Source of the DNA: an uncultured virus (IMG/VR IMGVR_UViG_3300035698_029469)
Taxonomy: Duplodnaviria; Heunggongvirae; Uroviricota; Caudoviricetes
Length of the DNA stretch: 20,000 nucleotides
IMG/VR virus record: IMGVR_UViG_3300035698_029469
Reading direction: 5' to 3' (one strand)
The position numbers were made by a program, and so were the translations under genes. Under the pieces are notes generated by a model. It saw only the letters and a program-made list of their open reading frames with translations. It did not search any database and was not told the DNA's origin. Positions 1 to 18,215 of the stretch are shown one piece after another; the first letter of the stretch is position 1; every line of letters starts with the position of its first letter.

Positions 1-63
1 GTTGAAATCGAGGATGAGTTGGGTGTAACACCCGAACTTCACCTTTTCGTTAAGGAGAGATGA
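1..63 (+). CDS. 3' end of a gene cut by the window edge (VEIEDELGVTPELHLFVKER*)
   Basis: Open frame from position 1 to TGA at 61-63; the stop lies inside the leader of the next gene, as elsewhere in this array. Confidence 0.5.
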   Translation, partial: VEIEDELGVTPELHLFVKER

Positions 64-66
64 AAA

Positions 67-426
67 ATGGATATAAACACAAATTATTTTGATGAAATAA
101 AAAAGGGTGGTATAAAAATGGAAAGTGTAAATGAGATAAGGAATAGATGGAAGCGAGAACTATCAGACATTACAATAGAAAATGTCGATAGTTTGATTGC
201 CGATGTAGATCGAGTCAAAGAACTATCTATAGATTTCCCGACTGAAAATATCGATATTCAGAAGCAAAGTGTCGATATAAAATTTTTATTGTTACATTTT
301 AAAATGTTATTGGAGTATTCCGATAACGCGAATCTTATTGCAACTTTAAATGAACAACACCTTTTCAATTTGAATTTTTATATGTCTGCCGCTGCAATAT
401 TGGAAATGCGGAGTTTTGATGATTAA
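67..426 (+). CDS. hypothetical protein, 119 aa (alternative start at 118)
   Basis: ORF preceded by the AAGGAGAGATGAAAAATG leader. Confidence 0.75.
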   Translation: MDINTNYFDEIKKGGIKMESVNEIRNRWKRELSDITIENVDSLIADVDRVKELSIDFPTENIDIQKQSVDIKFLLLHFKMLLEYSDNANLIATLNEQHLFNLNFYMSAAAILEMRSFDD

Positions 427-452
427 AGGGGATAAAAATGGAGGAATGAAAA

Positions 453-677
453 ATGGAAATGGAAAAAATGAGTTTTATATTAGGTGTGGGATTTACAATA
501 ATGATGGGAATAATAATTATGGCTTATCTTTATTATAGATGGCAGGAGAATTATTTTGTAAACCCGCCCGAAAATTTAACGAAAAAACAAGTTACAAAGG
601 GAACTGCTATTCTTTCCGTGCAATCTATTATAATTATTATTTGTATGTTTTTAATTCCGATAATAATTATCAGATAA
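453..677 (+). CDS. small membrane protein with 2 predicted TM segments
   Basis: GGAGG leader; hydrophobic stretches at both termini. Confidence 0.75.
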   Translation: MEMEKMSFILGVGFTIMMGIIIMAYLYYRWQENYFVNPPENLTKKQVTKGTAILSVQSIIIIICMFLIPIIIIR

Positions 678-691
678 TTTAAAAAGGAGGA

Positions 692-1177
692 ATGATTAAA
701 ATGCCGGAATTAGAAATGACTTGGATGGTAATATTATTATTTTTTATAATCGGAATAATAATTTTTATCGGATGTTTTTTATTTATTTTATTGAATAAAT
801 ATGTATTAGAGGAAGCAAATAAGGAATATCAAAAGGGCAATAAAGATGATTGTTATGGATTTATTATAATGCTTTTAATATTAGATTATTTAATTTTCGG
901 AGCTATATTTTGTATTGCGGATCATTATATTCGGGGTTATTATTCTTATACATGCGCAATTATAAGTTATACTATGATAGCTATTGTAGTTAATATTATG
1001 TTACTTGCTATGATTGCTTGTGGAATAGAAGATGTATCTGAAAAAGAAGAATCGTTAGGTATTATATTGGGTGTAGCAATATTAATTATTGTAAATTTAT
1101 ATTTAATATTAATATTGATAAATGCTTTGGATTATCTTGGAATGGATTTTCTGCCGATTGTAGTAATAAAGTGGTAA
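692..1177 (+). CDS. membrane protein with about 4 TM segments (start 692 or 701)
   Basis: AAGGAGG SD; four Ile/Leu-rich hydrophobic segments. Confidence 0.75.
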   Translation: MIKMPELEMTWMVILLFFIIGIIIFIGCFLFILLNKYVLEEANKEYQKGNKDDCYGFIIMLLILDYLIFGAIFCIADHYIRGYYSYTCAIISYTMIAIVVNIMLLAMIACGIEDVSEKEESLGIILGVAILIIVNLYLILILINALDYLGMDFLPIVVIKW

Positions 1178-1194
1178 ATAAGGAGGAATAAAAA

Positions 1195-1776
1195 ATGGAA
1201 GAATGTAATTGCGAAAAGTGTATGAGTTTGTGTTCAGGAATGCCGGGATGGTTTAAAGGCGGGCAGGCTATAAAAGCGGCCGAACATTTAAACTTATCAC
1301 TACTTGAATTTTTTGATCAATATCTTATGTTTGATAGTTGGGGTCAAAGCTTTATCCGGCATTGTTCGGCAGATATTGATGTCTTAATGCCACGAAATAA
1401 TAAATATAACTTATCAGATATAATGAAAAGACCGATGATGGAAAGGCGGCACGCTCGATGTAGATTATTGACGGATCACGGTTGTAAATTGCCATTAGAA
1501 CTTCGACCGTTTGAATGTGCCAACATATTTGGATGTAATTATCCGAATAAAAAAAATAGTCGAGAAATTCATATAGAAACTGCAAAATCTTGGGTTAAAA
1601 ATTATTTGGAAATTGAAGGAATATTGTCGATGAAGGGTTATACCCGCGAGAGACTTTATCGGGAAACAAACCAATATGAATATGATTTTGGTTTTAGCTC
1701 GAGAAATCAACATGATAATTGGGAAAATGATTGGGAATGGAAATATGTTCAAAATTTAAGTGATGAGGGATTCTAA
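1195..1776 (+). CDS. YkgJ/CxxCxxCC-like cysteine-cluster (Zn or Fe-S) protein
   Basis: N-terminal CxCxxCxxxC plus C-terminal CRLLTDHGCKL...RPFEC, matching the YkgJ pattern C-x-x-L-x(3-4)-G-C...R-P-x-x-C. Confidence 0.75.
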   Translation: MEECNCEKCMSLCSGMPGWFKGGQAIKAAEHLNLSLLEFFDQYLMFDSWGQSFIRHCSADIDVLMPRNNKYNLSDIMKRPMMERRHARCRLLTDHGCKLPLELRPFECANIFGCNYPNKKNSREIHIETAKSWVKNYLEIEGILSMKGYTRERLYRETNQYEYDFGFSSRNQHDNWENDWEWKYVQNLSDEGF

Positions 1777-1802
1777 AAAGGCCGAATAAGGAGAAATGAA
1801 AA

Positions 1803-1952
1803 ATGATTGTAAATGATTTGCTTAGATTGAGAGATGAGATAAAAGATTATATTTCAAATAGTGATAAAATAAAATATAATAGTTTTATAAGAATTGCGAA
1901 GGATGATTTGGATTTTGTAGAAAGTGAAATAGAAAGGGAAACGACAGATTAA
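1803..1952 (+). CDS. hypothetical 49-aa protein (MIVNDLLRLRDEIKDY...ERETTD), not in the ORF track
   Basis: Full leader AAGGAGAAATGAAAAATG at 1788-1805; fills the gap between flanking genes. Confidence 0.65.
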   Translation: MIVNDLLRLRDEIKDYISNSDKIKYNSFIRIAKDDLDFVESEIERETTD

Positions 1953-1981
1953 CCCGACCGAGTCAGAAGGAGGAATGAAAA

Positions 1982-2419
1982 ATAATTGTAAATGGAAAAC
2001 TCTTCAAACTCACAGATCGTTGGATTGGTTTACGAGTACGACGTAATGAGCAAAGAGGCCGATTTATGGGGTTTGATGAAAGCGGACGGCACATTGTTCA
2101 ATTTCAAACTTTTAAAACTGGAATTATAAACACAAATAATCTTAGCCTGGGATCACAAATAATGGATTTTCTTAATAATATGTATCGCGTCAGACGTGCT
2201 ATTACAACTGGTAATATATCAATATTAAATATATCGGGCGGTGATATTTTAAATATTGATAGAAATGTAATTAGATTAGAAGATATCGATGTTGCAGTAT
2301 TGAACGAATATTTTACTGAAGTAATGGAATTATATCGATTAATATTTGAAGTGTCAATTAAAATGACGGCGCCTTCAAATAAAATTGATTTGGGCCACCG
2401 GAAAAGTTGGTTCGATTAA
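1982..2419 (+). CDS. HRKSWF-family paralog 1; the homologous start position is ATA (first in-frame ATG at 2066)
   Basis: In-frame upstream extension IIVNGKLFKLTDRWIGL matches MIANGKQIELTDRWIGL of 3964..4431; C-terminus DLGHRKSWF. Confidence 0.7.
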   Translation: MIVNGKLFKLTDRWIGLRVRRNEQRGRFMGFDESGRHIVQFQTFKTGIINTNNLSLGSQIMDFLNNMYRVRRAITTGNISILNISGGDILNIDRNVIRLEDIDVAVLNEYFTEVMELYRLIFEVSIKMTAPSNKIDLGHRKSWFD

Positions 2420-2432
2420 GGAGGAATGAAAA

Positions 2433-2909
2433 ATGAGCGATTTGGATTTAATTATCACTACTACCAATTGCACAAGAGCCGAAGCCATTAACGCTTATAA
2501 AGTTTCGGGTCACAACTTTGTAAACACAATTGTTTATTTAGTTGATCATACTGAGTTGAAAAATCGAATAAAGGCGGAATTAACGGAAATATTAGATGAT
2601 TTTTATAAATTAATTTATCATAAAGATTGTAATGTTATGTCTATAAGTGATGATAGGATGTATAATAATGATAGTGGTCTTTATTTTTATAGAAATCATT
2701 CTGGATTTAGATTTTTTCAATCGCAATTATTTAAAGTGCATTTAGTAAATACTCGTTATGATGTAAATATGATAGACACACAAGAACTTGTAAGAATATC
2801 AACCGAAAAAGTAATTAATCTGTTAGTAGTGTCACGAATGACATTACCTAAGAATTGCGATAAAAAATTAATTATTAGATATATAAAACAATTTAGTCGG
2901 TTTATTTAG
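2433..2909 (+). CDS. protein with N-terminal NAC-alpha-like UBA domain; RFI-tail family paralog 1
   Basis: DLDLIITTTNCTRAEAINAYKVSGHNFVNTIVYL resembles the NAC-alpha/HYPK UBA pattern; C-terminal 40 aa similar to 3119..3469. Confidence 0.65.
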   Translation: MSDLDLIITTTNCTRAEAINAYKVSGHNFVNTIVYLVDHTELKNRIKAELTEILDDFYKLIYHKDCNVMSISDDRMYNNDSGLYFYRNHSGFRFFQSQLFKVHLVNTRYDVNMIDTQELVRISTEKVINLLVVSRMTLPKNCDKKLIIRYIKQFSRFI

Positions 2910-2925
2910 AAAGGAGAGTGAAAAA

Positions 2926-3114
2926 ATGAGTAAACGAATATATTTAATTATTGGTATTTTATATTTTTTATTATATGTAATATTAATAATACAATATAGT
3001 TTAAAGATAATAAATATTGATATGTTCACGATTGAAGTATCTTATCTAATGTTTATCGGCGTGGTTTTATATTGGTTGTTAAATCACCACCATCAAAGGT
3101 TAAAAGGAGAATGA
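2926..3114 (+). CDS. small 2-TM membrane protein
   Basis: Leader motif; two hydrophobic segments. Confidence 0.65.
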   Translation: MSKRIYLIIGILYFLLYVILIIQYSLKIINIDMFTIEVSYLMFIGVVLYWLLNHHHQRLKGE

Positions 3115-3118
3115 AAAA

Positions 3119-3469
3119 ATGAGTGAAACGATAACACGAATCAATCAGGCGACACTTGAAAGTTTTCCATTCCATTTAATTGACGATAGTCAATTACGTA
3201 GAGTGGATAAAGATTGGGGTAAAGATTGGGGAATCTTCATTCAGTTTCACAATGCTCCAAATCGAACCTTTATTTGGTTATTATCTGATAGTATTACTTT
3301 ATATTATAGGAAGATAATTTGTTGGTCACCTTTCGATTTTAAAGGTTGGGATTATAAAATAACCGAATCCGAATTGAATACCTTTTTGGCAATTGCCCGA
3401 TTATACGGCAAAAAGAAAACAGTAGCCGAAATTAAAGATGCTCTTAAAAAATTAGGTCGGTTTATTTAA
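3119..3469 (+). CDS. hypothetical protein; RFI-tail family paralog 2
   Basis: Leader motif; ends KITESELNTFLAIARL...LKKLGRFI. Confidence 0.75.
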   Translation: MSETITRINQATLESFPFHLIDDSQLRRVDKDWGKDWGIFIQFHNAPNRTFIWLLSDSITLYYRKIICWSPFDFKGWDYKITESELNTFLAIARLYGKKKTVAEIKDALKKLGRFI

Positions 3470-3483
3470 AGGGGGAATGAAAA

Positions 3484-3714
3484 ATGAAATCATTAGATGA
3501 ATTAGAAAATTTAGGATTTACATTATTTTCAATAGGTTTAATAGCTGCTATTGTGGGAACTATATTTACAATAATATATATGTGTTTAGGTGTTTTTAAT
3601 GAAATTGAAACTCAAAGCATGATACTTTCAATTATAGTTAGTTTTTTTATATGTTGGATAGGATTTACTATATTAAATTACGCCGATAAAATTCATGATG
3701 AAATAAATGAATAA
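3484..3714 (+). CDS. small 2-TM membrane protein
   Basis: Leader motif; two hydrophobic segments. Confidence 0.7.
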   Translation: MKSLDELENLGFTLFSIGLIAAIVGTIFTIIYMCLGVFNEIETQSMILSIIVSFFICWIGFTILNYADKIHDEINE

Positions 3715-3919
3715 GGTCGGTTTATTTAAACTAAAGCGACAAAATGGAAATGATAAGATGGAAAATAGAAATTATGTTTTTGTAAATATATCTCCTCCGG
3801 TTGATTATTTAATGCGCTACATATTTAGAAGTGTGGAGCGACCATATACATATAAGACAATAACTAAAATTTATGAAAATGGTTATCATAGTAAAGATGA
3901 AGAAATTATTCATTATTAA
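3707..3919 (+). CDS. hypothetical protein (true start possibly ATG 3758)
   Basis: ORF fills the gap; the 5' part carries the GTCGGTTTATTTA repeat and may be non-coding. Confidence 0.55.
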   Translation: MNKVGLFKLKRQNGNDKMENRNYVFVNISPPVDYLMRYIFRSVERPYTYKTITKIYENGYHSKDEEIIHY

Positions 3920-3963
3920 AACGACAAGGAGAAATGAAAAATGGAAAATAAAGAGATGATAAA

Positions 3964-4431
3964 ATGATAGCAAACGGAAAACAAATCGAACTTACAGATC
4001 GTTGGATCGGGTTACCTGTCCAAACTAAATTTATGTTTGTCGATAATGATGCTATTGAACAAGGGTTATTTAGTGGGCAATTTATATATTGTGATCATGA
4101 TAGATGCGTTATTGATTTTGGAGTTTATAAAAATAGACTTAGGAATTCTGATCAGATATTTTACGGTGTAAACATGCAAAGATTTGTCAAAGCTATGTAT
4201 TGGATTCGACGAAATTTCGAACAAAACGGGGCGGTTAATCCAAATTCTTTTGAATCAATCATACCAATTGTTGATGATCTCGAACCGATAGAGGTCGAAT
4301 TCCTCAATGAGTATTATGATGATTATATGATTATTTATAGAAAAATTTTTGTAGTTCCGTCCAAAATGATGGTTAATGCCGAAAAATACGACTTGGGTCA
4401 CCGGAAAAGTTGGTTTAAAGATGAGGTATGA
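3964..4431 (+). CDS. HRKSWF-family paralog 2
   Basis: N-terminal LTDRWIGL; C-terminal DLGHRKSWF. Confidence 0.8.
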   Translation: MIANGKQIELTDRWIGLPVQTKFMFVDNDAIEQGLFSGQFIYCDHDRCVIDFGVYKNRLRNSDQIFYGVNMQRFVKAMYWIRRNFEQNGAVNPNSFESIIPIVDDLEPIEVEFLNEYYDDYMIIYRKIFVVPSKMMVNAEKYDLGHRKSWFKDEV

Positions 4432-4435
4432 TAAA

Positions 4436-4819
4436 ATGATGTTAGGTAATAGTGATTATTTTTTAGATGATCGATTTTTGGGAATGCGTTTAAATGTTTC
4501 CGAAAATGTAACTTTTGGGCACGAAATGTTCAAAAACAAACCGACTTTTTATCAAACTGAAAATGAAAATTATATTAAAGTTATGATTTTAATGAAGGGA
4601 TCAAATCATAATAAAAGTCCTTTAATGTCAACTTTAGATTATATGGGACCCTTTTCAGTTAAGCGTAATTCTGTCTTTGCTTCATTAGAATTATTATTAG
4701 CGAGTGTAAATCCGAATTCTTATAATTTGGAACGATTAACAACACAAGAGAAATTATTTTATGATGAGTATTTATTTGATCACCGGAAAAGTTGGTTTGA
4801 AGATGAGGAATTAATTTAA
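4436..4819 (+). CDS. HRKSWF-family paralog 3 (start reassigned from 4376 to ATG 4436)
   Basis: GAGGT SD before 4436; MMLGNSDYFLDDRFLGM aligns with LTDRWIGL; shares VNPNS with paralog 2; ends DHRKSWF. Confidence 0.75.
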   Translation: MMLGNSDYFLDDRFLGMRLNVSENVTFGHEMFKNKPTFYQTENENYIKVMILMKGSNHNKSPLMSTLDYMGPFSVKRNSVFASLELLLASVNPNSYNLERLTTQEKLFYDEYLFDHRKSWFEDEELI

Positions 4820-4842
4820 ATTACAAGGAGAGATGAAAAATA

Positions 4843-5055
4843 ATGGGAATATTAAAAAAACTTATGCCGTTTCGGGTTCCATATAGTAATGGCCCGTGTT
4901 GGTATAAAGGAAAATGGAACGGTTATGACAAATTAGAATTATTGAATGGACATAAAGTATATAGACATTGGCGAAGTTTATCTATAAATTTATTAGATAT
5001 AATTTTAATTCCAATTTATATAATAATAAAGAGAAAAAGGAGAGTAATAAAATGA
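4843..5055 (+). CDS. small basic protein with a C-terminal hydrophobic segment
   Basis: Leader motif at 4825; LLDIILIPIYIII followed by KRKRR. Confidence 0.65.
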   Translation: MGILKKLMPFRVPYSNGPCWYKGKWNGYDKLELLNGHKVYRHWRSLSINLLDIILIPIYIIIKRKRRVIK

Positions 5056-5399: not shown

Positions 5400-5753
5400 A
5401 TGAATAAAAGAACAAGATTAGTGAATCTTACACCGCATGAAATAACTATATATCGCGGAAGCAAGATAATCCAAATTATAGAGCCAAGCGGCCAAAAAGC
5501 CTTTATTACCACATCTTACAGAAAGTTGAGAACTGTTAACGGCATAGACGTTGTCGAAACAGAATGGGGGGAACCGAAAGGAATCCCGCCGCCGGCACCG
5601 AACACTTTTTATATTGTTTCGACGGTGGTGTTGCAGGGTAGCGACCGTGAGGATCTTATAGCGCCGGATACTGGTAAAACGGCTGTTAAAGCTAACGGTA
5701 AGATTATAGGAATAACCAGGTTTCAGGTGTGGGCTTGGGCACCTGGGAAATAA
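5400..5753 (+). CDS. NLTPH-motif protein, candidate Crn4-like ring nuclease / anti-CRISPR
   Basis: Motifs NLTPH, G.P.P, YIVS, R.DL.AP, G.IIG; 117 aa, beta-rich. The family assignment is from recall of the motif, not from a search. Confidence 0.55.
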   Translation: MNKRTRLVNLTPHEITIYRGSKIIQIIEPSGQKAFITTSYRKLRTVNGIDVVETEWGEPKGIPPPAPNTFYIVSTVVLQGSDREDLIAPDTGKTAVKANGKIIGITRFQVWAWAPGK

Positions 5754-6024: not shown

Positions 6025-6110
6025 TGGTGGGCGGGAGCGGATTCGAACCGCTGTCTCCTCAGTAGTTTCCTAGGACTGACTTGAGGCGTCTGCCTCTAAC
6101 CTACCCGCTC
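6025..6110 (-). ncRNA. tRNA-like RNA A (86 nt) with a 20-nt anticodon loop; possibly an intron-containing tRNA of undetermined identity
   Basis: Acceptor GAGCGGG/CCCGCCC plus ACCA; T arm AGCGG-TTCGAAT-CCGCT; stem CCTCA/TGAGG encloses AGTCAGTCCTAGGAAACTAC. Confidence 0.75.
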
Positions 6111-6122
6111 ATAGACCTGGAT

Positions 6123-6250
6123 TGGTGGTAACTGCCGGATTTAAACCGACGTCATCGGGCGGCTTACACGTTCGAGCGCAATTAACGCTCCTCCCGACCC
6201 ATTGCGGGATGTGCCCTGTCCCTATGTAATCTCTGCTATACTAGGTTACC
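6123..6250 (-). ncRNA. tRNA-like RNA B (128 nt) with a multi-hairpin domain in place of the anticodon arm
   Basis: Acceptor GGTAACC/AGTTACC plus ACCA; T arm GTCGG-TTTAAAT-CCGGC; internal stems GGGC/GCCC, ACAT/GTGT, TCCCG/CGGGA and GAGCG/CGCTC. Confidence 0.7.
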
Positions 6251-6415
6251 ATTGTATTTTTTTAACAGTGTATTGATTCTTAAACAGCAGGACTCGATTC
6301 TATCATCCATATATTTCGTTTCGGCACGAGAACACTTTATGCCGTATATTATAACTAAGATAGGCCCCACTATAGCTATTATAATGCACAAAACATCGAT
6401 GTATAATGGTATCAT
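6236..6415 (-). CDS. 59-aa single-TM micro-protein inside the tRNA cluster, not in the ORF track
   Basis: AAAGGAGA SD then ATG; MIPLYIDVLCIIIAIVGPILVIIYGIKCSRAETKYMDDRIESCCLRINTLLKKYNGNLV*. Confidence 0.7.
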   Translation of the reverse strand: MIPLYIDVLCIIIAIVGPILVIIYGIKCSRAETKYMDDRIESCCLRINTLLKKYNGNLV

Positions 6416-6452
6416 TGTGTTTTCTCCTTTCTATTTTATGCTACGTCGAAAT

Positions 6453-6613
6453 TGGTGGCAACCGGTGGATTCGAACCACCGTTGATTGGATATCTCCTTA
6501 CTCTGTTTATTCGCGCGCGCCACATAAGCTGAGGGGATCATGAGTCCAACGTCTCAGAGGGCTTCTTACCCGGTTACCCGAGCGGTATGCCAACCTGGCT
6601 AGACTAGATTGCC
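6453..6613 (-). tRNA. tRNA(CAT), elongator Met or Ile2, with two introns (37/38 at 6492-6538; D-loop at about 6556-6591)
   Basis: Removing the 47-nt and 36-nt inserts gives GGCAATC-TA-GTCT-AGCCAGGTTG-AGAC-G-TTGGA-CTCATGA-TCCAA-TCAAC-GGTGG-TTCGAAT-CCACC-GGTTGCC-A-CCA (78 nt). Confidence 0.85.
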
Positions 6614-6620
6614 TTTAATT

Positions 6621-6697
6621 TGGTGTCAGCGAGTGGAGTTTAACCACTGCAGCCCGGGCAGACTGTACGCCTTGCTTTTGCACTCAGCCACACTGAC
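6621..6697 (-). ncRNA. tRNA-like RNA C (77 nt) with an enlarged D loop, a shifted anticodon arm and essentially no variable loop
   Basis: Acceptor GTCAGTG/CGCTGAC plus ACCA; T arm AGTGG-TTAAACT-CCACT; hairpin CAGTC-TGCCCG-GGCTG. Confidence 0.7.
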
Positions 6698-6706
6698 AAC
6701 AGTTAA

Positions 6707-6790
6707 CGTCTGTTCCCGCCTCACGGCAAGACGAGACGGATTACCCTTTTTTAATCTCCAACGGTAATCTGGAGAAGCCGCTTTCGGGGC
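6707..6790 (-). ncRNA. structured RNA: GAAA hairpin, H-type pseudoknot and GUGA-capped hairpin
   Basis: TCTCCA/TGGAGA stem whose loop GATTACC is complementary to downstream GGTAATC across TTAAAAAAG; CGTCT/AGACG and CTTGCC-GTGA-GGCGGG. GNRA loops and G-U pairs fit only the minus strand. Confidence 0.65.
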
Positions 6791-6811
6791 GCGCACCATA
6801 CCCTGTTTTCC

Positions 6812-6837
6812 CTTTAAAACGTCTATTTTTAAAGCTT
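6812..6837 (-). promoter_or_regulatory. candidate TATA-box promoter of the RNA operon
   Basis: AAGCTTTAAAAA (6837-6826) and TTTTAAAG (6819-6812) lie about 20-40 nt upstream of the structured RNA. Confidence 0.45.
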
Positions 6838-6893
6838 AGAGTGGTAATGCCTTTAAGTAGATCCTTCTATCTCTTATCTGTGCGGCCGGGTAT

Positions 6894-8729
6894 TTAATAA
6901 TCCCAAGTAGTTGCAACCGCAAAGCCCGAAAAATCATCATAATCATCATTTGTGAAATTTATAACTTTGGGTTCTTGTTGTGCTCTACCGCCGGGTGAGT
7001 TGCCCTGTCTATAAGCTATAGCGGCAACCGGTTCATGTCCCGGGCTATCGTCCCGCATTTGTCTTAATGCCCAAGCTCCCATAGCCAGGGTAATAACCCG
7101 ATCATCACGGCCGTTTTTGGGATATTTAATATTGCCGCTTTCCGTGAATTCTTGTCGGAATTCGCGCAGCTCGTTTTCGAGGGAATAGAGTTCATGATCT
7201 ATAGTTCCTTTAGTCTTTCGATGTTCGGGATTATAATAGGGAATTCGGATTTCGTTATTCTCGAAGAGGTGCTTGAGATTAGAAATAACCAGCGGTTTAT
7301 TTTGAGCTGTAAAGTTTAGGCCAAGATCGCCTTTGGTGCGCCAAAAATGCGGAGGTTCATATCCAAACATTTGATCGCAGGCTTTTTTAAGGCCTTTCAC
7401 AAATATTCGGCCGACATTTTTACCGTCAAATACTACGGCCGTCGGACGGAAAGCTTCAATTAATCTTAAAGCTTGGGGTAACAATACTTCTTCGTAGTCA
7501 GCATGTAGATAACTTTCCTGCCAAACAAGCGAAGTGCATTCTCTTACGATCATTGTCCCATCTTTATCGCTGTTTACGATTGTCGGGCGTTTTGTTATAA
7601 ATGAAAATACCGTTCGATCGTGGGCTTGACCAAGGTCCCCGGCAAATACAAGAGGATATTTTCCTTTTGGTTCGGGGTCTAAAAATGGATAGCCGGCCGA
7701 TTTAGTCTCGGCTTCTTTTGTAAAATGCGAGACCGAATCCAATAATTGATCTGCAATAAAAACTCCGCCTTTTGCCGGCTCTTGAATTAAATCTTTACCG
7801 TAGAGGCCGGCAATTGCTCTAACAGAATCGGTTTCGATAAATGGATTAACAATGGGGACCCAACCGTTTACATCGCGGGCACGGAGAATATATTCGTTCT
7901 TAAATACGCTATCGGCATCGGAAACAAATTCTCCTTGAAGTTCTTCTTTAATCGAACGCGGACTGATTCTGTGATCTTCCATTTTTTGAAGAAATAATTC
8001 TGTATTCATCCACGGTACTGCCCATTTACATTGATTTTCGATTAAATTACCGTGGTTATCGAAGAAGAGATCATCTTTAATATTATATTTTTTATAGTAA
8101 TTTTCGTTGGTTTCGCTTATCCATTGCTCATAAAACCAGCCGCTCATTCCGAACGGTGTAGAACCTGCAATAACACGGGAAAAATCAAAATTAGGTCTTA
8201 TTGTTGGTAAAACGGGACCAACAATGAATTCCGTGGGTAATTGTGCAACTTCATCTATAAAACCAATTTCAAAACTCCGGCCACGGCAAGCGTCGCTTAC
8301 AGGAAAAGCCCAAATGTCAGAACGATTTTTAAGTTTAAAATGATCTTTGGCAATATTTTTTGGAACTAAAGTATGAAAATCGCTGTTCCTGATAAATTGT
8401 TCAATTATTCCGACTGATCTTGTTGCTTCATTATAACCCACCGAAAAATAGCCGATTAAAATACCTGGCCGTGTGATCATAAGAGCCGCTGCTATCACGT
8501 GCATAAGTGTAGATTTAGCATAACCTCTGGGAGCTTTTAAAAGTAATGTTCTTTTGCCTTCATAGACACCATCTTCAGGAGAACCGTATTGAAAGAGCCG
8601 ACAAGCTTCTTTTTGCCATTCGAGAAGTCTAAATGGCCGAAGTCCTTTTTCTTCTTTAAAGAAAGTTTCAATGAAGGTTACGAGATCCCGCATTAGATGA
8701 AGGTCTGCCATGCTAACGTTTATTCTCAT
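6894..8729 (-). CDS. terL: terminase large subunit
   Basis: Adenine-binding WQ, Walker A APRGYAKST, Walker B GFIDEVA, coupling motif GSTP, RNase H-like AGDLG..DRT and DDRVITLAM. Confidence 0.95.
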   Translation of the reverse strand: MRINVSMADLHLMRDLVTFIETFFKEEKGLRPFRLLEWQKEACRLFQYGSPEDGVYEGKRTLLLKAPRGYAKSTLMHVIAAALMITRPGILIGYFSVGYNEATRSVGIIEQFIRNSDFHTLVPKNIAKDHFKLKNRSDIWAFPVSDACRGRSFEIGFIDEVAQLPTEFIVGPVLPTIRPNFDFSRVIAGSTPFGMSGWFYEQWISETNENYYKKYNIKDDLFFDNHGNLIENQCKWAVPWMNTELFLQKMEDHRISPRSIKEELQGEFVSDADSVFKNEYILRARDVNGWVPIVNPFIETDSVRAIAGLYGKDLIQEPAKGGVFIADQLLDSVSHFTKEAETKSAGYPFLDPEPKGKYPLVFAGDLGQAHDRTVFSFITKRPTIVNSDKDGTMIVRECTSLVWQESYLHADYEEVLLPQALRLIEAFRPTAVVFDGKNVGRIFVKGLKKACDQMFGYEPPHFWRTKGDLGLNFTAQNKPLVISNLKHLFENNEIRIPYYNPEHRKTKGTIDHELYSLENELREFRQEFTESGNIKYPKNGRDDRVITLAMGAWALRQMRDDSPGHEPVAAIAYRQGNSPGGRAQQEPKVINFTNDDYDDFSGFAVATTWDY

Positions 8730-8733
8730 TTAA

Positions 8734-9069
8734 TCAATCTTCCAGTTCTTCGCCGATAATAACACAGCCTGCACACCCGTGAGTATCCCAAATTTTCATG
8801 TTAAATTCTCGATTATTTCCGCCTTTAAATCTACAATGTTCTCCAGTGTAAGCACAACCTAAACAACGCTCAGTTTGTCCGTTTTCGCCGTTCCGTTCCT
8901 TCATTTGTTCACCGACATTGTAGTGTTCCTTTCCCCAATCTTCATCAACCGTATTGCACAGATGGCAATAGCCGGCAAACATCCGCTTGCCTTCGTCAAA
9001 ACAATCGCAATTTGGACACATACAATCACCACAAGCTTTACACCATTGTTTTCCGCATTCTATATCCAT
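8734..9069 (-). CDS. Cys-rich putative Zn-binding protein, paralog 2
   Basis: MDIECGKQWCKACGDCMCPNC...YCHLC...CLGC...C...CAGC. Confidence 0.8.
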   Translation of the reverse strand: MDIECGKQWCKACGDCMCPNCDCFDEGKRMFAGYCHLCNTVDEDWGKEHYNVGEQMKERNGENGQTERCLGCAYTGEHCRFKGGNNREFNMKIWDTHGCAGCVIIGEELED

Positions 9070-9072
9070 CAA

Positions 9073-9249
9073 TTATGACTCCCATCGATTCTTAGTTCCA
9101 TCTAAGTAACCAGGATATTCTAATTCCATTTCTTGGCAAAAGTCACAATAATGATGTGAATTTGATGATTTTACTCGAATCCAATTACATTCTTTACATA
9201 TACAATCACCACAACCCCAACAGAATAGTTTTCCGCATTCTATATCCAT
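9073..9249 (-). CDS. 58-aa Cys-rich putative Zn-binding protein, paralog 1, not in the ORF track
   Basis: AGGAG SD; MDIECGKLFCWGCGDCICKECNWIRVKSSNSHHYCDFCQEMELEYPGYLDGTKNRWES*; DNA repeat 9021-9069 vs 9201-9249. Confidence 0.8.
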   Translation of the reverse strand: MDIECGKLFCWGCGDCICKECNWIRVKSSNSHHYCDFCQEMELEYPGYLDGTKNRWES

Positions 9250-9347
9250 TTTTAATTGATCTCCTGAATTATATAGTAAAAATGGTAAATATAAATTTAT
9301 TTGGATTTTGGAAAGATTTTAAATATTCGGGCGCGTAGATTTAAAGT
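9250..9347. promoter_or_regulatory. divergent archaeal-type promoter region
   Basis: + strand GAAAGAT-TTTAAATA (9311-9325) about 30 nt before ATG 9348 with no SD, consistent with a leaderless transcript; - strand AAATAAA-TTTATATT (9302-9288) about 30 nt before the SD of 9249. Confidence 0.6.
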
Positions 9348-9620
9348 ATGAGTGACGAATTAACGCTCGTCGAGGCTATTGTATTTTCGGATGGTGTCGG
9401 CGATAAAACATTAACAGTCAGAGAAATTGTCAAACGTATGTTAAAAACGGATGATGGATATTGGTATTTGAATCGTTTAACCGGTATAAATGGACGAATG
9501 AATGGTGTGCGCAGAATTTTAAATAGTTTGGTAACTAAGGGTTTTGTAAAAAGGGTAAACCTTCGTTATGTTAGCGGCGGGAATATTCCCAGAATCGGGT
9601 ATCGGATATGGAGTGATTAA
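9348..9620 (+). CDS. winged helix-turn-helix DNA-binding protein
   Basis: LTVREIVKRM...VRRILNSLVTKGFVKRV followed by a beta-wing ending GYRI. Confidence 0.75.
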   Translation: MSDELTLVEAIVFSDGVGDKTLTVREIVKRMLKTDDGYWYLNRLTGINGRMNGVRRILNSLVTKGFVKRVNLRYVSGGNIPRIGYRIWSD

Positions 9621-9621
9621 A

Positions 9622-10416
9622 ATGCCGTTTGAAAAATATCCGTCTCGGCCGAAGTTTACAGTGGAAGAGGCCGAAGAATTTTTAAGCAAACGTAACGAAT
9701 TCATCTACGGCGATCTTAGCGGAAAGCCCAACACAATATTTATTGGCGCTGGGCCAAAATGGCGTAAACGACCACCTTGTAAGAGTTGTAACCCTCTTTT
9801 TTTCGGCAGAATTCGGGAACTGGGCGATATGGATTTAGATTCTAAAAAAATACGAAAACAGTTACAATCGGATTTACCCGAAATATTAAAACGATTTCCG
9901 GAAGAAAGTGGAATTACTATCCCAACACCGCAGAGTATTGGCCGGCATATGCGGGATCATGGTTATGATGAACCGGTTCCCGAGGTTAAATCGGCTACTA
10001 TTGCTCGAAAAGTGTGTAATGCGGCCTTGTCGCCTTCAATAGAAACTACCGATGCGGAAACAGAAGGCGAGGACGTATCAATTGATGGTTTGAATTCTGT
10101 TCAAGAGTTATTTAAGACGGCGCAGGCTTTATGCGAACGGGAAGAATATATATTGACCCGGCATTTTGAAGAGGAACTAACACAGGATGATATAAGGGTA
10201 ATTTCGGAGAAACGCCAGGCTATCAAGGCCTACGAGCTTGGAAGAGTAGAATACCAGGATAACGAGAAACAGAAGCAAGTTGCGGTTTTAAATGCTATTG
10301 CAGTTAATATGCAAAAAATGGAATATGAGATGGAAGAAGGAAGCCGGGTAAGACAGCTAAATGAAGCAATTCTTAAATTGGTTGAAATGGAAGAAGAAAG
10401 CGAAAATAATAATTAG
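9622..10416 (+). CDS. putative terminase small subunit / Zn-binding HTH-like protein (start reassigned to ATG 9622)
   Basis: GGAGTGA SD; CKSC...SIGRHMRDH followed by an acidic helical C-terminus; lies directly before the portal. The function is inferred from position. Confidence 0.5.
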   Translation: MPFEKYPSRPKFTVEEAEEFLSKRNEFIYGDLSGKPNTIFIGAGPKWRKRPPCKSCNPLFFGRIRELGDMDLDSKKIRKQLQSDLPEILKRFPEESGITIPTPQSIGRHMRDHGYDEPVPEVKSATIARKVCNAALSPSIETTDAETEGEDVSIDGLNSVQELFKTAQALCEREEYILTRHFEEELTQDDIRVISEKRQAIKAYELGRVEYQDNEKQKQVAVLNAIAVNMQKMEYEMEEGSRVRQLNEAILKLVEMEEESENNN

Positions 10417-10472
10417 TAAACATTTAAATTTATTATAAAAACTAAATTAGTTAGATTACTGGAGATTACATC

Positions 10473-12188
10473 ATGGACGATATAACATTAAATAATACTT
10501 CTGAAATTACAGAGCAAGCTTCAAATGGTTCTATTGATCTCATGGAATTTTTATGTTGTTCCTACGTGAATCAAAACGAAGGAGCGGGAAATTTCGCTCC
10601 GTCGGGAAGTCCGCCGGCACTTTTCGCTGAGGACGTAAACTCTTATTTTGACGGAAATCTTACGGTGCCCAAGCTTGATGAATTGCGCTATTGGATGACG
10701 CCGGCAACCGCCACGAATAACTGGTTTCTATTTTCAAAGGAATCAACTTGCCGAAACATCGCAGAAACGATTATCTCTATGGTTAAGGGATCCGGGGCTA
10801 ATGTTACTGTTTACAACGATGATGGAATTGATGATGAACTAACTGAAGTAGCTACAAATTGGTATAGGAATATTGCCGGTGTTGGACAGTCTTTTAATAA
10901 TTATGTGCTTAAATGGTTTATTATGGATAATTTAATATTCGGGCAATCTCTTATGTATAAATTCCGACCCGATAAAACAAGCCCGCAGTATGATAAAGAT
11001 GATCTTTATCTCAGAAAGTTAGATCCGAGAGAAACTGTTCGACACGTTCACGACCGCCAAGGTTGGGAGAAATATATCCAATATCCACGAGTTCAGGCGG
11101 GATTTGGCATTTATATAAAACCCCGGCGTAGTAATAAAGCACAGCCGAAATATACCTGGCTTGATCCCCCAACAACTTACGGGGAGTTTATGAAGTGGGT
11201 CCCCGGGTTTTCGACTCTTTATGATGTTTATTCGCACGGGGCACGAGTTCGGGATAAACCGCTTATTATTGAAGGTAAAAAGGTTATCAGATCCAATTTT
11301 TGGGTATGGGCGCCTTTTAACTCTGTAATTGACTACGTGGTAACCAAACTACGTTGTATTTTTTATATTCAGAAAGTTGTGGAAAAACATGCATTCCCTT
11401 TACCACTTATAAAGGTCCCCAGAAATGCACGATGGGATAGCAATCCCGCTAAATATATAAAAAAGGTTAAAAATGCGGCCCGCATGGGAGCACAAATGAA
11501 AACCGGCGATGGATTAGCTGTTCAAGGCCCGCAACATAATGAAGAGGGAAAAGTCATAGATCCTGGCTGGGAAGTAGAAATACTTGACACGAAGTCAGCG
11601 ATCATAGATTTTGAAAAAATAATTACTATTTTGAACAACGGAATAGCACACGGGTTGATGATGAATCCTTCGGTAATAGACTCCGATTCTAGCCAGGGAA
11701 AAATGGCCACGGGCTATATGGGCTGGCAATCAATGGTTGTAGTTATTGAGAGTATCCGAAGTGCGATTCAGGATGTAATGATTCCGGTTACACAGGAATA
11801 CATTAAGTTTAAGACCGGAAGGACTGTAGAAGAAAAGAATGTTCAACTTAGATGGCAACGAATAAGCGAGAACGATTCGGCAATAATCGGAAGCCAAATT
11901 GTGCAATTTTTACAGGCGGGTATTATAGATATAGAAGAAGCCCGGGAACAGGCAAATATTATCGGTTGGAATTTAGAAGGAAAGTCTATTGAAGATATTA
12001 TGGACTTTTATAAAGAATATATGGAGATAATACAGCCGCCGGGTAAATCGGAAGGTTCTGTAGATTCGGATCCTGGTAATACCGGCGATAGAAGTGGCGG
12101 ATACCAAAATAATCCGCAGGACCGGGTTAAAAACGTTAATGTGACCAGAAAAGGCGGTGGCGGTGGAACTGGAAGGGAGGGTACTTAA
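10473..12188 (+). CDS. portal protein
   Basis: 571 aa; DNLIFGQSLMYK...LRKLDP, KHAFPLPLIKV, IAHGLMMNP and GIIDIEEARE are portal-like segments; disordered tail; upstream of head genes. Confidence 0.85.
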   Translation: MDDITLNNTSEITEQASNGSIDLMEFLCCSYVNQNEGAGNFAPSGSPPALFAEDVNSYFDGNLTVPKLDELRYWMTPATATNNWFLFSKESTCRNIAETIISMVKGSGANVTVYNDDGIDDELTEVATNWYRNIAGVGQSFNNYVLKWFIMDNLIFGQSLMYKFRPDKTSPQYDKDDLYLRKLDPRETVRHVHDRQGWEKYIQYPRVQAGFGIYIKPRRSNKAQPKYTWLDPPTTYGEFMKWVPGFSTLYDVYSHGARVRDKPLIIEGKKVIRSNFWVWAPFNSVIDYVVTKLRCIFYIQKVVEKHAFPLPLIKVPRNARWDSNPAKYIKKVKNAARMGAQMKTGDGLAVQGPQHNEEGKVIDPGWEVEILDTKSAIIDFEKIITILNNGIAHGLMMNPSVIDSDSSQGKMATGYMGWQSMVVVIESIRSAIQDVMIPVTQEYIKFKTGRTVEEKNVQLRWQRISENDSAIIGSQIVQFLQAGIIDIEEAREQANIIGWNLEGKSIEDIMDFYKEYMEIIQPPGKSEGSVDSDPGNTGDRSGGYQNNPQDRVKNVNVTRKGGGGGTGREGT

Positions 12189-12190
12189 AT

Positions 12191-12361
12191 ATGGATAAAT
12201 TTAGTGATTGGGAAATGAAACGTATTTATATTTCACCAATAGGTTCTGATGGAAAGGGTGATTCGTTTTCTAATGGAGTTAAAAATTTAAAGGAAGCATT
12301 TAATAATTCAAATGAAAAGACAATAATAATGATTCCGCCACATCCATCACAGAGGTTATAA
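12191..12361 (+). CDS. 56-aa ORF resembling the N-cap of the beta-helix modules (possible gene fragment)
   Basis: GGAGGG SD; RIYISPIGSDGKGDSFSNGVKNLKEAF...TIIMIPP. Confidence 0.5.
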   Translation: MDKFSDWEMKRIYISPIGSDGKGDSFSNGVKNLKEAFNNSNEKTIIMIPPHPSQRL

Positions 12362-12363
12362 AT

Positions 12364-12522
12364 ATGATGTACGTGGAACAATTTAACGAACAACGCGATA
12401 CAATTGATGAAATTTTAATTTTACCTAATAACGAATATGAAATTATATCTAGTTATTTACCTATAAATCATTATCAAATTATGTTGGCTAAGGAATATGA
12501 TAGACAAAAGGACGAGAAGTAA
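12364..12522 (+). CDS. hypothetical 52-aa protein
   Basis: GAGGT SD; tiles between neighbouring genes. Confidence 0.5.
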   Translation: MMYVEQFNEQRDTIDEILILPNNEYEIISSYLPINHYQIMLAKEYDRQKDEK

Positions 12523-12523
12523 A

Positions 12524-12706
12524 ATGTTAAATATAGAAATATCAAGTGGAAATAAAACTCCAACTTTTTGGCAATATATTTATTATCCAGATCCTAATGG
12601 ACCAAAAACATATAATTGGGCTAATATTCCAAAAACTTTAAAAGAATTTACTATTCTTATGGAGAAATATAAATGGGGCAACGATATTATACGACAACGT
12701 CAATAG
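12524..12706 (+). CDS. hypothetical protein (start 12524 or 12497)
   Basis: In the ORF track; ATG directly follows the previous stop. Confidence 0.55.
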   Translation: MLNIEISSGNKTPTFWQYIYYPDPNGPKTYNWANIPKTLKEFTILMEKYKWGNDIIRQRQ

Positions 12707-12840
12707 AGCAAGACGTATTAGAATCAATTACATCGACCAAACGATATGAACTAGAACATAGAATTCTAGAATTAGAAGCTGAACTTAAGAAAGCAAGGCA
12801 AATGTTACAACAATTAAAAACAGCGGAGAGAGCTAAATGA
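12673..12840 (+). CDS. 55-aa coiled-coil protein
   Basis: GGAG SD; ELEHRILELEAELKKARQMLQQLK heptads; ATGA overlap with the next gene. Confidence 0.55.
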   Translation: MGQRYYTTTSIEQDVLESITSTKRYELEHRILELEAELKKARQMLQQLKTAERAK

Positions 12841-13028
12841 AATGCGATCTATGTGAAAATGAACTTATTTTATCGGTTCTTGTTGATTGTCCTAAGTTGC
12901 CGGAAGATCGTACTTGTGTTTGTCTATGCGAAGAATGTGGGGGAAAATATGCTAATACTCCAAGCATTCTTAGTAATATGATAAAAATAAGAATAGGTAT
13001 TAATGAAAATCGGGTGCTTTTAATATGA
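12837..13028 (+). CDS. small zinc-ribbon protein
   Basis: CDLC and CEEC pairs; GGAG SD. Confidence 0.65.
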   Translation: MKCDLCENELILSVLVDCPKLPEDRTCVCLCEECGGKYANTPSILSNMIKIRIGINENRVLLI

Positions 13029-13136
13029 GACGGCCAAAACGTGGGAGTTTTCAATCATTTCCTGATTATCTTTATTCGGAAAATGAAACACAAACCGAAT
13101 TATTTAGTTTAATTAATGAAAGGGATATGACAGAAT

Positions 13137-13604
13137 ATGAGCGTTACAATCAGAGACAACGACAATCTAAGCGAGTTAATAAACGATCTTGAAAAAAATG
13201 TCGAAAGAATTCGGGAAGAAATAGCTGATATAATTCATGTAAAAGTTGCCGGGCGTTTTTTAAAAGGGGAAATTGGAGGCCCTGCTTTATCGGTTATAAC
13301 TTTGGCGGGAAAAGTGCCGGAAATAAGACCGCTCATAGAAACTCATCAAATGATGGATGCCGTGAATATTTGGGAAACGAGTTCTGACACCTCACATATT
13401 GGGATTCAGGCCGGCGGAATAGGAAGAGTTGGAAGGGGTTTTAATAATGTAACAAATGAAGTTTTGGGTTGGGTTCATGAGGAAGGAACTGCGAGAATTC
13501 CGGCGAGACCTTGGCTTGGTCCGGCGGTGGACGAGAATTTAAATGAAATTTTGAATGAATTAGAAGAGAAAATATATGATATGATTGGGGATTATGAAGT
13601 ATGA
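13137..13604 (+). CDS. HK97 gp10-like / virion morphogenesis (tail completion) protein
   Basis: PLIET..M...V and HEEGTARIPARPWLGPA signature. Confidence 0.8.
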   Translation: MSVTIRDNDNLSELINDLEKNVERIREEIADIIHVKVAGRFLKGEIGGPALSVITLAGKVPEIRPLIETHQMMDAVNIWETSSDTSHIGIQAGGIGRVGRGFNNVTNEVLGWVHEEGTARIPARPWLGPAVDENLNEILNELEEKIYDMIGDYEV

Positions 13605-13960
13605 TGAAAACAGTTTCCTTGATTTTAGATGATAGAATTGGTAAAGGATATTATCATGAGGCGGTAAAAACATTAATAAATAAAGAAGTAGTTTTGAATC
13701 ATATATCGCCGATTGATGATCCATCGGCATATTTAGGACGTATTTTACATGCTTATATTGATAATGATGAATCTATAAAGTGTAATATTGATTTTTGTGA
13801 TAAAAAAAATATATATTGTAATTATATTGAAAATGGAAAGTTTTGGCCGGCTTTCACTATTTTTTATGTTAGTTGTGGAGAATCATCTAAAATGTTTATT
13901 CGTGAAATTATATTTGATCATATTAGTTTATGTATCAATTTAGAAAACATTAAAAATTAA
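13601..13960 (+). CDS. degenerate paralog of the prohead protease domain
   Basis: NKEVVLNHISPIDDPSAYLGRI vs NQEVLLSHVSPNDNVNSYMGRV; KFWPAFTIF vs KFWKGVSIG; DHISLCIN vs REVSLARN. Confidence 0.7.
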   Translation: MMKTVSLILDDRIGKGYYHEAVKTLINKEVVLNHISPIDDPSAYLGRILHAYIDNDESIKCNIDFCDKKNIYCNYIENGKFWPAFTIFYVSCGESSKMFIREIIFDHISLCINLENIKN

Positions 13961-13977
13961 ACTAAAGGAGATAAAAT

Positions 13978-14469
13978 ATGGCAACATGTACAGAACTTTC
14001 GTTGAATAACGAAGTAGATCGCGCCGCCGTAAAGGTAGTTATCGATCTCATTGCAAATACAACTTGCGGGACTCAATTTTATAATTTGGTCGGCGGGGTT
14101 AGCGATTTTGTTACAGCATTGAATGCTATTGATGTGGGTAATATTACCGTTAATGCCGGTGCTGATGCGCGTGCGTATGATCTTAGAAATGGGACAGATG
14201 AAGCACTCTTCGAAGCTGCATGCGAAACAGTAAATCTAATCGATGTAATCGTTTGGGAAACTCCAAGTAGCCGAAAGATGTATGGACTGACGTTGAACGG
14301 AGTCGGAACAACTTATCAAGGAGTTATTATAGTTCCGCTTAGCGGTGGAAAGAGTATAAACGCTATTATTATTACAAATAGTGGCGTTTCGAAATATAAT
14401 GCTTATCAAACCAAAATATACAGTATGCAAAGTGGCCTGCAAAAGATTGCAATAATTGAAGACGCTTAG
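13978..14469 (+). CDS. hypothetical protein, possibly virion-associated
   Basis: AAGGAGA SD; Ala/Gly/Thr/Val-rich composition like the structural genes. Confidence 0.75.
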   Translation: MATCTELSLNNEVDRAAVKVVIDLIANTTCGTQFYNLVGGVSDFVTALNAIDVGNITVNAGADARAYDLRNGTDEALFEAACETVNLIDVIVWETPSSRKMYGLTLNGVGTTYQGVIIVPLSGGKSINAIIITNSGVSKYNAYQTKIYSMQSGLQKIAIIEDA

Positions 14470-14614
14470 ACTTATTATATTGCTCTGCTGAACGTAGACC
14501 AAAAAGAATACCGATATTTTAATCCAAACTTTGACAGTGCGGCCTTGTCGCCGCCTCTTTTTCTACTCTATTTCTTTTCCGGATAAACCAAAATCTTTTT
14601 TTCGGGTTGGAATG

Positions 14615-14630
14615 GAAACACTTATATATA
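14615..14630 (+). promoter_or_regulatory. candidate BRE/TATA promoter of the capsid operon
   Basis: GAAACAC-TTATATATA in the 207-bp gap before the protease gene, downstream of oligo-T tracts. Confidence 0.5.
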
Positions 14631-14676
14631 GGTTCCCCCGTTTTTTATAAGTAGTTACTAAGGGGGATTTTGCGGC

Positions 14677-16649: not shown

Positions 16650-16665
16650 AGCGGAGGAGATATAT

Positions 16666-17655: not shown

Positions 17656-17668
17656 GGTGTATAGAGAA

Positions 17669-18181: not shown

Positions 18182-18215
18182 AAGCCTAATAATCTAATTA
18201 GGAGATGAGAAAAAC

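Follow-up and report, generated by a model that had tools for sequence, protein, structure and literature searches.

Between the large terminase gene terL and a series of tRNA-like genes of an uncultured tailed phage lies a short segment whose minus strand was proposed to fold as an H-type pseudoknot. The locus raises the question of whether this segment encodes a structured RNA at all, whether the structure includes the pseudoknot, and what such an RNA might do directly upstream of tRNA-shaped genes. Positions given below refer to the whole 20,000-nt stretch of DNA that was analysed, here called the window.

Position and layout of the module

The window is part of a tailed phage without close relatives. 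A full HMMER search of 1.84 billion representatives identified 125 relatives of its TerL protein, the best sharing 43% identity with it, and each of the four nearest forms a singleton cluster; identity to TerL of cultured phages is at most 27.6%. The terL gene lies upstream of the module on the same (minus) strand, and genes for a major head protein, a neck protein, and a NosD-like fibre are found further right on the plus strand. In the direction of minus-strand transcription the order is a promoter-like site (9295-9268), two small Cys-rich ORFs, terL, a 96-nt AT-rich spacer, the module, tRNA-like C (6697-6621), tRNA-like B (6613-6453), another promoter-like site (6461-6433), a 59-aa ORF, tRNA-like A (6250-6123), tRNA-Leu(CAA), and three tRNA-Arg genes. 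The module and its neighbours are composed as follows.

6894-8729, minus strand: terL, large terminase (phrog_2, E = 2.3e-29)
6707..6797, minus strand: GC-rich, ORF-free, putatively structured module (GC 0.571 across 91 nt)
6777..6790, minus strand: 5' hairpin GCC-C-C[GAAA]G-C-GGC with a GNRA loop, weak, with a C/C mismatch
6775-6770 with 6760-6755, minus strand: S1, UCUCCA/UGGAGA, 6 bp, 9-nt loop GAUUACCGU, -6.5 kcal/mol alone
6769-6763, minus strand: 5' strand of S2, GAUUACC, within the S1 loop
6754-6746, minus strand: A-rich linker L3, DNA TTAAAAAAG, RNA UUAAAAAAG, which holds an A AAA AAG heptamer
6745-6739, minus strand: 3' strand of S2, GGUAAUC, seven perfect pairs with 6769-6763
6738-6707, minus strand: 3' hairpin, with a 5-bp lower stem, a 2x2 internal loop, a 7-bp upper stem containing G-U, and a GUGA loop
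6706-6698, minus strand: AU-rich 9-nt linker UUAACUGUU, placing a U at -1 of tRNA-like C
6621..6697, minus strand: tRNA-like C, with a 7-bp acceptor stem, T arm, and encoded ACCA; presumed RNase P substrate, cloverleaf-like MFE

Sequence inspection locates all of the helices and loops listed in the original prediction at these minus-strand coordinates. The S1 loop word GATTACC is, as proposed, fully complementary to GGTAATC across the A-rich linker (7/7 pairs, linker of 9 nt), and the element ends 9 nt before a CCA-ended, tRNA-shaped gene, the linker occupying 6706-6698 and tRNA-like C beginning at 6697. The 5' hairpin holds up only in part: the word GCCCC-GAAA-GCGGC is present at 6790-6777, but its stem is weak, because the C/C mismatch reduces it to 3 + 1 bp, and its local MFE is about -4.9 kcal/mol with flanks included. 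A single base, U6776, links this hairpin to S1. As drawn, the loops of the knot are L1 = 0, L2 = GT, and L3 = 9 nt. The 3' hairpin at 6738-6707 closes through the stems CGTCT..AGACG with an energy of -16.1 kcal/mol, and S2 could stack on it, since the 3' strand of S2 (6745-6739) abuts the base of the hairpin at 6738 with no linker between them.

The AT-rich spacer just upstream of the module contains on the minus strand a perfect 8-bp A/U hairpin, CUUUAAAA-AUAGACG-UUUUAAAG, at 6812-6834. A second ATTACC word, at 6843-6848, could pair with 6740-6745; ATTACC occurs in 22 copies in the window.

The GC content of the left arm (1-5000, small plus-strand genes) is 28-31%, versus 33-47% elsewhere (33-45% for the structural genes, 7000-20000), and the left-arm ORFs give no family match above curated cut-offs. 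No RNA-handling enzyme was found among the 30 ORFs scanned. A GGAG-type Shine-Dalgarno sequence precedes most of the 30 listed ORF starts and most early genes, and the protein encoded at 5400-5753 has homologues in Bacillus and Paenibacillus phages, plus one archaeal virus record; a search of contigs with this protein returned only an 11-residue match. The usual Shine-Dalgarno use and low GC, together with the Bacillus- and Paenibacillus-phage homologues of this one gene, hint that the host is perhaps Bacillota-like. Four salt-lake DNA runs, each from a different study, yield contigs that carry the stretch, and no RNA run was among those carrying it. Thirteen of the 14 contig pieces are without differences, no variant falls within the element, and the fourteenth is a 35-nt unlike piece inside terL. 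A metagenome contig of 1,531 nt, L290, matches the window at 100% identity over 865 nt.

The two small Cys-rich ORFs (9073-9249 and 8734-9072, both minus strand) are adjacent and lie upstream of terL, where a small terminase might be expected. They look like paralogues, since both start MDIECGK; the ORF at 8734-9072 has no family match. The plus-strand early genes meet the minus-strand tRNA array at 5714-5747. A strong hairpin at this point (-16.9 kcal/mol for the plus strand) may act as a two-way terminator, since a U-rich tail follows it on the minus strand; the terminator scan made no call there.

Stability of the fold and the predicted pseudoknot

The module is a GC island, with a GC content at 6707-6797 of 0.571 versus 0.385 for the adjacent spacer (6798-6893) and 0.377 for the window, and in this respect it equals the tRNA and tRNA-like genes (0.53-0.57). 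GNRA tetraloops cap both of its hairpins, GAAA at the 5' side and GUGA at the 3' side. No other 34-nt fold on the minus strand of the window is as stable as the 3' hairpin, which scores -17.1 kcal/mol, compared with a mean of -2.76 and a standard deviation of 2.66 for 34-nt folds on the minus strand across the 20 kb. The plus-strand copy of the same sequence reaches only -13.1 kcal/mol, and the G-U pairs of the hairpin exist on the minus strand only. The 203-nt intergenic stretch as a whole folds with z = -2.37, and only 3 of 200 shuffles are as good. Since the GC island, the GNRA loops, the minus-only G-U pairs, the outlier 3' hairpin, and the z value of the 203-nt stretch all point the same way, the module is likely to encode a structured RNA on the minus strand. 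Taken by itself, the nested fold of 6700-6800 is not significant (z = -1.55, with 16 of 200 shuffles folding equally well). By energy, only the strong end hairpin stands out from chance; the knot does not.

The segment does have the general form of an H-type pseudoknot, in that S1 (6 bp) and S2 (7 bp) are entirely Watson-Crick and the S1 loop pairs with sequence 3' of the stem, and whether this form is remarkable depends on how it is counted. As a strict pattern of perfect 6 + 7 bp with short loops it occurs at three places in the window, versus a mean of 0.22 in 100 shuffles, and when at least 6 G-C pairs are required the flagged knot is the only one, against 0.01 expected from shuffles. The two other perfect 6 + 7 places are both AT-only, and they indicate that the natural sequence yields such patterns more often than shuffles do. 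Energies were compared using a crude model consisting of helix energies, a 9 kcal/mol knot penalty, and 0.2 per loop base, with G-U allowed. In this model scores of -8 or better are found at 12 places on the minus strand and 11 on the plus strand of the window, many within genes; about ten places attain -10 or better. Within the local 100 nt, 17 of 500 shuffles match the best knot energy, and that best knot is a different, implausible one. The knot thus exceeds chance as a strict pattern, and as a statement about energy it does not.

The crude model places the knotted conformer at -32.9 kcal/mol, or at -30.9 kcal/mol if L1 is at least 1, versus a nested MFE of -32.0 kcal/mol, so the two are level. 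Taken singly, S1 (-6.5) and S2 (-6.7) are alternatives of equivalent energy, and the nested MFE takes S2. The L3 of 9 nt is ample, and the L1 of 0 is strained, requiring an L1 of at least 1 costing 2 kcal/mol in this model. In classical geometry an S2 of 6-7 bp needs an L1 of at least 1 nt, and with L1 = 0 an end pair would need to open. We regard the S1/S2 pseudoknot as no more than a possibility.

These results bear in opposite directions on two readings of the complementarity. According to the first, the S1/S2 match arose by chance and the segment is a GC-rich spacer acting as filler. The excess of 6 + 7 patterns over shuffles in the real sequence, including the two AT-only places, the roughly ten energy-equivalent knots elsewhere, some of them in coding sequence, and the z of -1.55 for the nested fold are all consistent with this reading, as is the fact that the finding was selected from one of very many windows. 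Nevertheless, filler in a genome of 38% GC would scarcely account for the GC island, the GNRA loops, G-U pairs confined to one strand, and a 3' hairpin of outlying stability, and we consider a segment without specific function unlikely. According to the second, the knot is genuine and has a specific job, whether it caps the RNA against exonucleases, binds a protein, or is a new small ribozyme or processing signal. The rarity of a perfect 6 + 7 bp knot with 6 G-C pairs, the A-rich L3, and an S2 that could stack directly on the 3' hairpin argue for it. However, the comparable knots in the window, the energetic parity with the nested fold, and an L1 of 0 across a 7-bp S2 argue the other way, as do the comparisons with known RNAs given below, and a knot with its own specific job is in our judgement quite unlikely. 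The functions put forward in the original prediction, namely a nuclease-blocking cap, a self-cleaving or processing element, and a stand-alone sRNA, gain no support from the analysis and stand as mere possibilities.

The statement in the original prediction that there is no ORF to frameshift is essentially right: the sole ORF across the knot (6799-6626, minus strand, 57 aa) lacks a Shine-Dalgarno sequence and overlaps tRNA-like C, and no slippery heptamer precedes S1. A role for the knot as a -1 frameshift stimulator was rejected, the A AAA AAG heptamer being located within L3 and its 57-aa ORF having no Shine-Dalgarno sequence. The heptamer (6745-6751, minus strand) does sit in the slippery frame of that ORF, 7 nt upstream of the strongest hairpin, in a layout that resembles dnaX; the -1 frame stops immediately after it (GGG UAA), and the resemblance is probably coincidental.

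Comparison with known RNAs and search for relatives

The absence of any catalogued RNA family, as originally claimed, was borne out by Rfam 15, which gives no match at gathering thresholds. With E values up to 10, two snoRNA models are all that touch the element (6707-6728), with scores of 11.6 and 13.5 bits that fall well short of their cut-offs. Up to the same E value none of the riboswitch and ribozyme families, including preQ1, SAM-II, pistol, hatchet, and twister, matches, nor does any HDV-type family, which also counts against a knot with a job of its own.

One architectural parallel is the exonuclease-resistant RNA known as coremin or xrRNA-C, with its Watson-Crick variant. Its first hairpin, hp1, has 3-5 bp and is closed by a YGAD or GNNN tetraloop; an S2 of 3 bp forms with a conserved spacer of 10 nt, and another hairpin, hp2, comes next (PMC6546385, PMC10321173). 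In coremin, and in the knot as drawn, the hairpin loop pairs with the 3' spacer and a second hairpin follows directly. The dimensions of the module are nevertheless unlike those of coremin, with an S1 of 6 bp, a 9-nt loop, an S2 of 7 bp, an L1 of 0, and a different, 9-nt spacer. Identity with coremin/xrRNA-C was rejected, as the module shares only the feature that an hp2 follows. A loose coremin descriptor is non-specific, finding 33 starts on the minus strand and 26 on the plus strand of the window, and the 9-mer AGACGUUAA that is common to the module and coremin is at about chance level, with roughly 1.8 occurrences expected arithmetically per window. The same source (PMC10321173) reports assays in which classical frameshifter-type H-knots do not stall Xrn1, with or without a downstream hairpin, which argues, by analogy only, against the idea of a cap.

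Against this background we weighed the proposal that an S1/S2 knot seated on a GUGA hairpin is a new compact module that phages place directly before tRNA-shaped genes, where it would serve as a directional exonuclease roadblock or insulate processing or folding, and would thereby be the prokaryotic equivalent of the exonuclease-resistant RNAs of viruses. Both the new module and this role, taken jointly, seem to us improbable. In the literature on exonuclease-resistant knots, judged from titles and the opening lines of abstracts, the xrRNAs found are those of eukaryotic viruses or are engineered. A functional knot at this locus would count as one of the first natural knots in a prokaryotic virus to be described as blocking exonucleases or directing processing.

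Theta ribozymes provide a second parallel, as they are located within 5 nt of a phage tRNA whose 3' trailer they are postulated to cut (PMC10879173). The likeness is that of a small pseudoknotted RNA adjoining phage tRNA genes, the knot being a predicted one in the present case. The theta fold, however, is a nested double-knot HDV fold, whereas the module has the helix order a-b-a'-b' followed by a hairpin, for which reason it cannot form the nested double knot of P1, P1.1, P2, P3, and P4, and it lies upstream of a tRNA-like gene. An HDV-like or theta identity was rejected by eye, because GAGAUUAAAAAAG cannot supply a P3 of 3 bp and L3 contains no C for P1.1. The position is not of the theta type either, since the element ends 9 nt before the 5' end of the tRNA-like gene and no tRNA lies upstream of the element. 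Riboswitches of the preQ1-I/SAM-II type resemble the module in having a stem with an A-rich 3' tail that is able to lie in the minor groove and whose end pairs with the loop. They differ from it in that the module has no Rfam match and no expression platform, and, S2 occupying 7 of the 9 loop bases, no ligand pocket.

Phage tRNA clusters carry leaders, spacers, and stable non-tRNA RNAs, an example being the T4 tRNA region with its stable RNAs. The module resembles these as an ORF-free, structured segment on the tRNA strand that is presumably released by RNase P; it differs in having no sequence or family relation to them, in following terL, and in preceding non-canonical tRNA-like genes. Several other identities were set aside. 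ARAGORN run with -m found no tmRNA, and a GAAA-tetraloop receptor (UAUGG with UCUAAG), a phi29-type pRNA, a C/D or H/ACA guide RNA, a pac or cos site, and an attP remnant were each dropped by eye, the features that would fit them being absent.

Relatives of the module were sought by sequence, through proteins, and by patterns anchored on its loops, and among the matches listed the only copies are identical, with no diverged relative. Against phages, blastn of 6100-6900 gave no match and blastn of 6698-6800 gave one 26-nt match with E = 0.3, and in viral contigs an exact 21-mer gave 0 matches. TerL produced only a 20-residue match in viral contigs, a TerL alignment used as query gave no confirmed match in viral and metagenome contigs, and a word-indexed protein search with TerL returned no match. 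Viral contigs gave no match to P0001 either, and TerL was found neither in the genome G001 nor in the 401 genomes searched of the same class. In the loop-anchored scans the loops were fixed in sequence and length and the stems were left free, a design that passes over relatives with altered loops. Viral contigs yielded at least 114 matches, and the best among the matches listed has 9 of 13 stem positions pairable. A stricter pattern that includes the GUGA loop gave 0 matches in viral contigs and 12 in metagenome contigs; 11 of the latter are non-complementary (8 of 13 positions or fewer), and the one with complementary stems is L290, the identical copy of the window phage. The matches listed in these scans thus include no structure-compatible variant, which is a further point against a knot maintained for a specific purpose.

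A proposed junction between the terL message and the RNA genes

The reading that we favour, tentatively and at slightly less than even confidence, is that the module forms a structured junction within a co-transcript running from terL to the tRNA-like genes, and that it ends and stabilises the terL message once RNase P has cut. All steps of this model are ones that we infer. Transcription from the promoter-like site at about 9295-9268, upstream of the small genes and terL, would run through the module into tRNA-like C. RNase P would then cut at U6698/G6697, freeing the RNA genes and leaving the terL message to end in the GUGA hairpin plus 9 nt. The GUGA hairpin and the helices that precede it would block 3'-to-5' exonucleases on the terL message, and the module may also keep the upstream fold from interfering with the tRNA-like C substrate. 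The S1/S2 pseudoknot would be optional, in that it may form, add stability, and stack S2 on the hairpin. If real, the module would show a phage joining a late protein message and RNA genes in one transcript, with each end defined and protected.

RNase P is known to make 3' ends at a downstream tRNA-like element, as in MALAT1/mascRNA and in bacterial mRNA-tRNA operons such as secG-leuU. The locus shares with these the succession of a message, a stable structure, a short linker, and a tRNA-shaped RNase P substrate. It differs from MALAT1, in which the structure is a U-A-U triple helix with a terminal A-tract, the module being a hairpin, possibly with an H-knot, and the processing putative.

The evidence that favours the junction consists of the GC island, the GNRA loops, the strand-specific 3' hairpin, the z of the 203-nt stretch, the lack of a Shine-Dalgarno-led ORF, and the features of tRNA-like C. 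In tRNA-like C a 7-bp acceptor stem is stacked on a 5-bp T stem, with a U at -1. An acceptor/T-stem stack, an encoded ACCA, and a U at -1 are features of a minimal RNase P substrate. As a tRNA, tRNA-like C is less convincing: ARAGORN needs a relaxed threshold to call it tRNA-Leu(cag), it gives no match to the Rfam tRNA model, and its "anticodon" arm has a 4-nt loop in the MFE. Promoter-like sites flank the unit, upstream of the operon (9295-9268) and downstream at 6461-6433, and the scan called no sigma-70-like promoter and no terminator between terL and tRNA-like C, although for promoters it is limited to the sigma-70 consensus. The non-significant z (-1.55) of the 101-nt nested fold, searches that turned up no diverged homologue, and a promoter candidate at 6825-6795 that was noticed by eye stand against the junction model.

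The last of these points leads to an alternative in which the module is the promoter-driven 5' leader of tRNA-like C and B. Transcription would begin near 6790-6797 from a phage promoter or a weak host promoter in the AT-rich region 6893-6798, and the 5'-terminal hairpin and the helices behind it would guard the precursor against 5'-end-dependent decay until they are cut off by RNase P. The GC content does step from 38% to 57% at about 6797, the AT-rich region just upstream contains TATA-like and weak -35/-10-like words, and a start at about 6790 would put the GAAA hairpin at the very 5' end. The candidate, a weak TAGACG-19-TATGGT site at 6825-6795, could start a transcript near 6790. It has, however, a 19-nt spacer and 4/6 matches per hexamer, and the sigma-70 scan finds no site there. 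Both the promoter-driven leader and the shielding role assigned to it are in our view rather unlikely, though to be taken seriously.

A second alternative is a leaky terminator or attenuator, in which the strong hairpin followed by UUAACUGUU would partly halt transcription after terL and so set the ratio of terL to downstream RNA. The hairpin is the strongest on the strand, it lies about 155-185 nt past the terL stop codon, and a moderately U-rich 9-mer follows it. The tail UUAACUGU, on the other hand, has 4 U in its first 8 nt, and the terminator scan makes no call at 6707-6698; an intrinsic terminator proper, with a GC-rich hairpin and a U-run, was rejected at that position. Read-through into tRNA-like C would still be required, since tRNA-like C starts 9 nt after the hairpin and there is no room for a promoter of its own. 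Attenuation at this site is thus a doubtful explanation, to which we give little weight.

Least probable of all, and in our opinion very improbable, is a larger RNA in which the 5' edge of the module (6797-6773) pairs with both insertions of tRNA-like B, creating a domain of about 290 nt that encloses the knot and tRNA-like C. The MFE of 6800-6440 does pair GGCUUCU/AGAAGCC, AAGC/GCUU, and GUGCGCGCC/GGCGCGCGC, and the duplex of 6773-6797 with 6510-6566 (7 + 4 + 9 bp) gains -12.8 kcal/mol, with 4 of 300 shuffles as good. The pairing was, however, spotted in hindsight, and its words are common or palindromic: AGAAGCC has 7 copies in the window, and GCGCGC self-pairs. It also competes with the cloverleaf of tRNA-like B. 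Separately, duplex folding of long sequence was set aside as uninformative, since 101 of 300 shuffles were as good.

As a prediction from a single sequence, the element has its main value in pointing to the unusual RNA island at 6123-6797, and the island around the module may repay study more than the module does, tRNA-like B above all. Within it, tRNA-like A (6123-6250, minus strand) is 128 nt long and encodes ACCA; its acceptor stem has one C/A mismatch, and its T-arm loop reads UUUAAAU. It is called by neither ARAGORN nor Rfam. The 59-aa ORF (6236-6415, minus strand), whose final codons overlap the 5' end of tRNA-like A, lies among the RNA genes, has a hydrophobic N-terminus and a good Shine-Dalgarno sequence (AAAGGAG), and has no family match. 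The promoter-like TTGCCA-17-TAAAAT (6433-6461, minus strand) precedes this ORF and overlaps the 3' end of tRNA-like B. tRNA-like B itself (6453-6613, minus strand) looks like a tRNA-Met/Ile(CAU) gene, with an encoded CCA, that carries two insertions, one of about 36-40 nt in the D-loop and the other of 47 nt in the anticodon loop. Both insertions fold into irregular hairpins, one of them with a GUAA loop, and inspection by eye found no clean bulge-helix-bulge. When both insertions are removed in silico, ARAGORN with default settings calls tRNA-Met(cat) in 51 of 63 junction variants.
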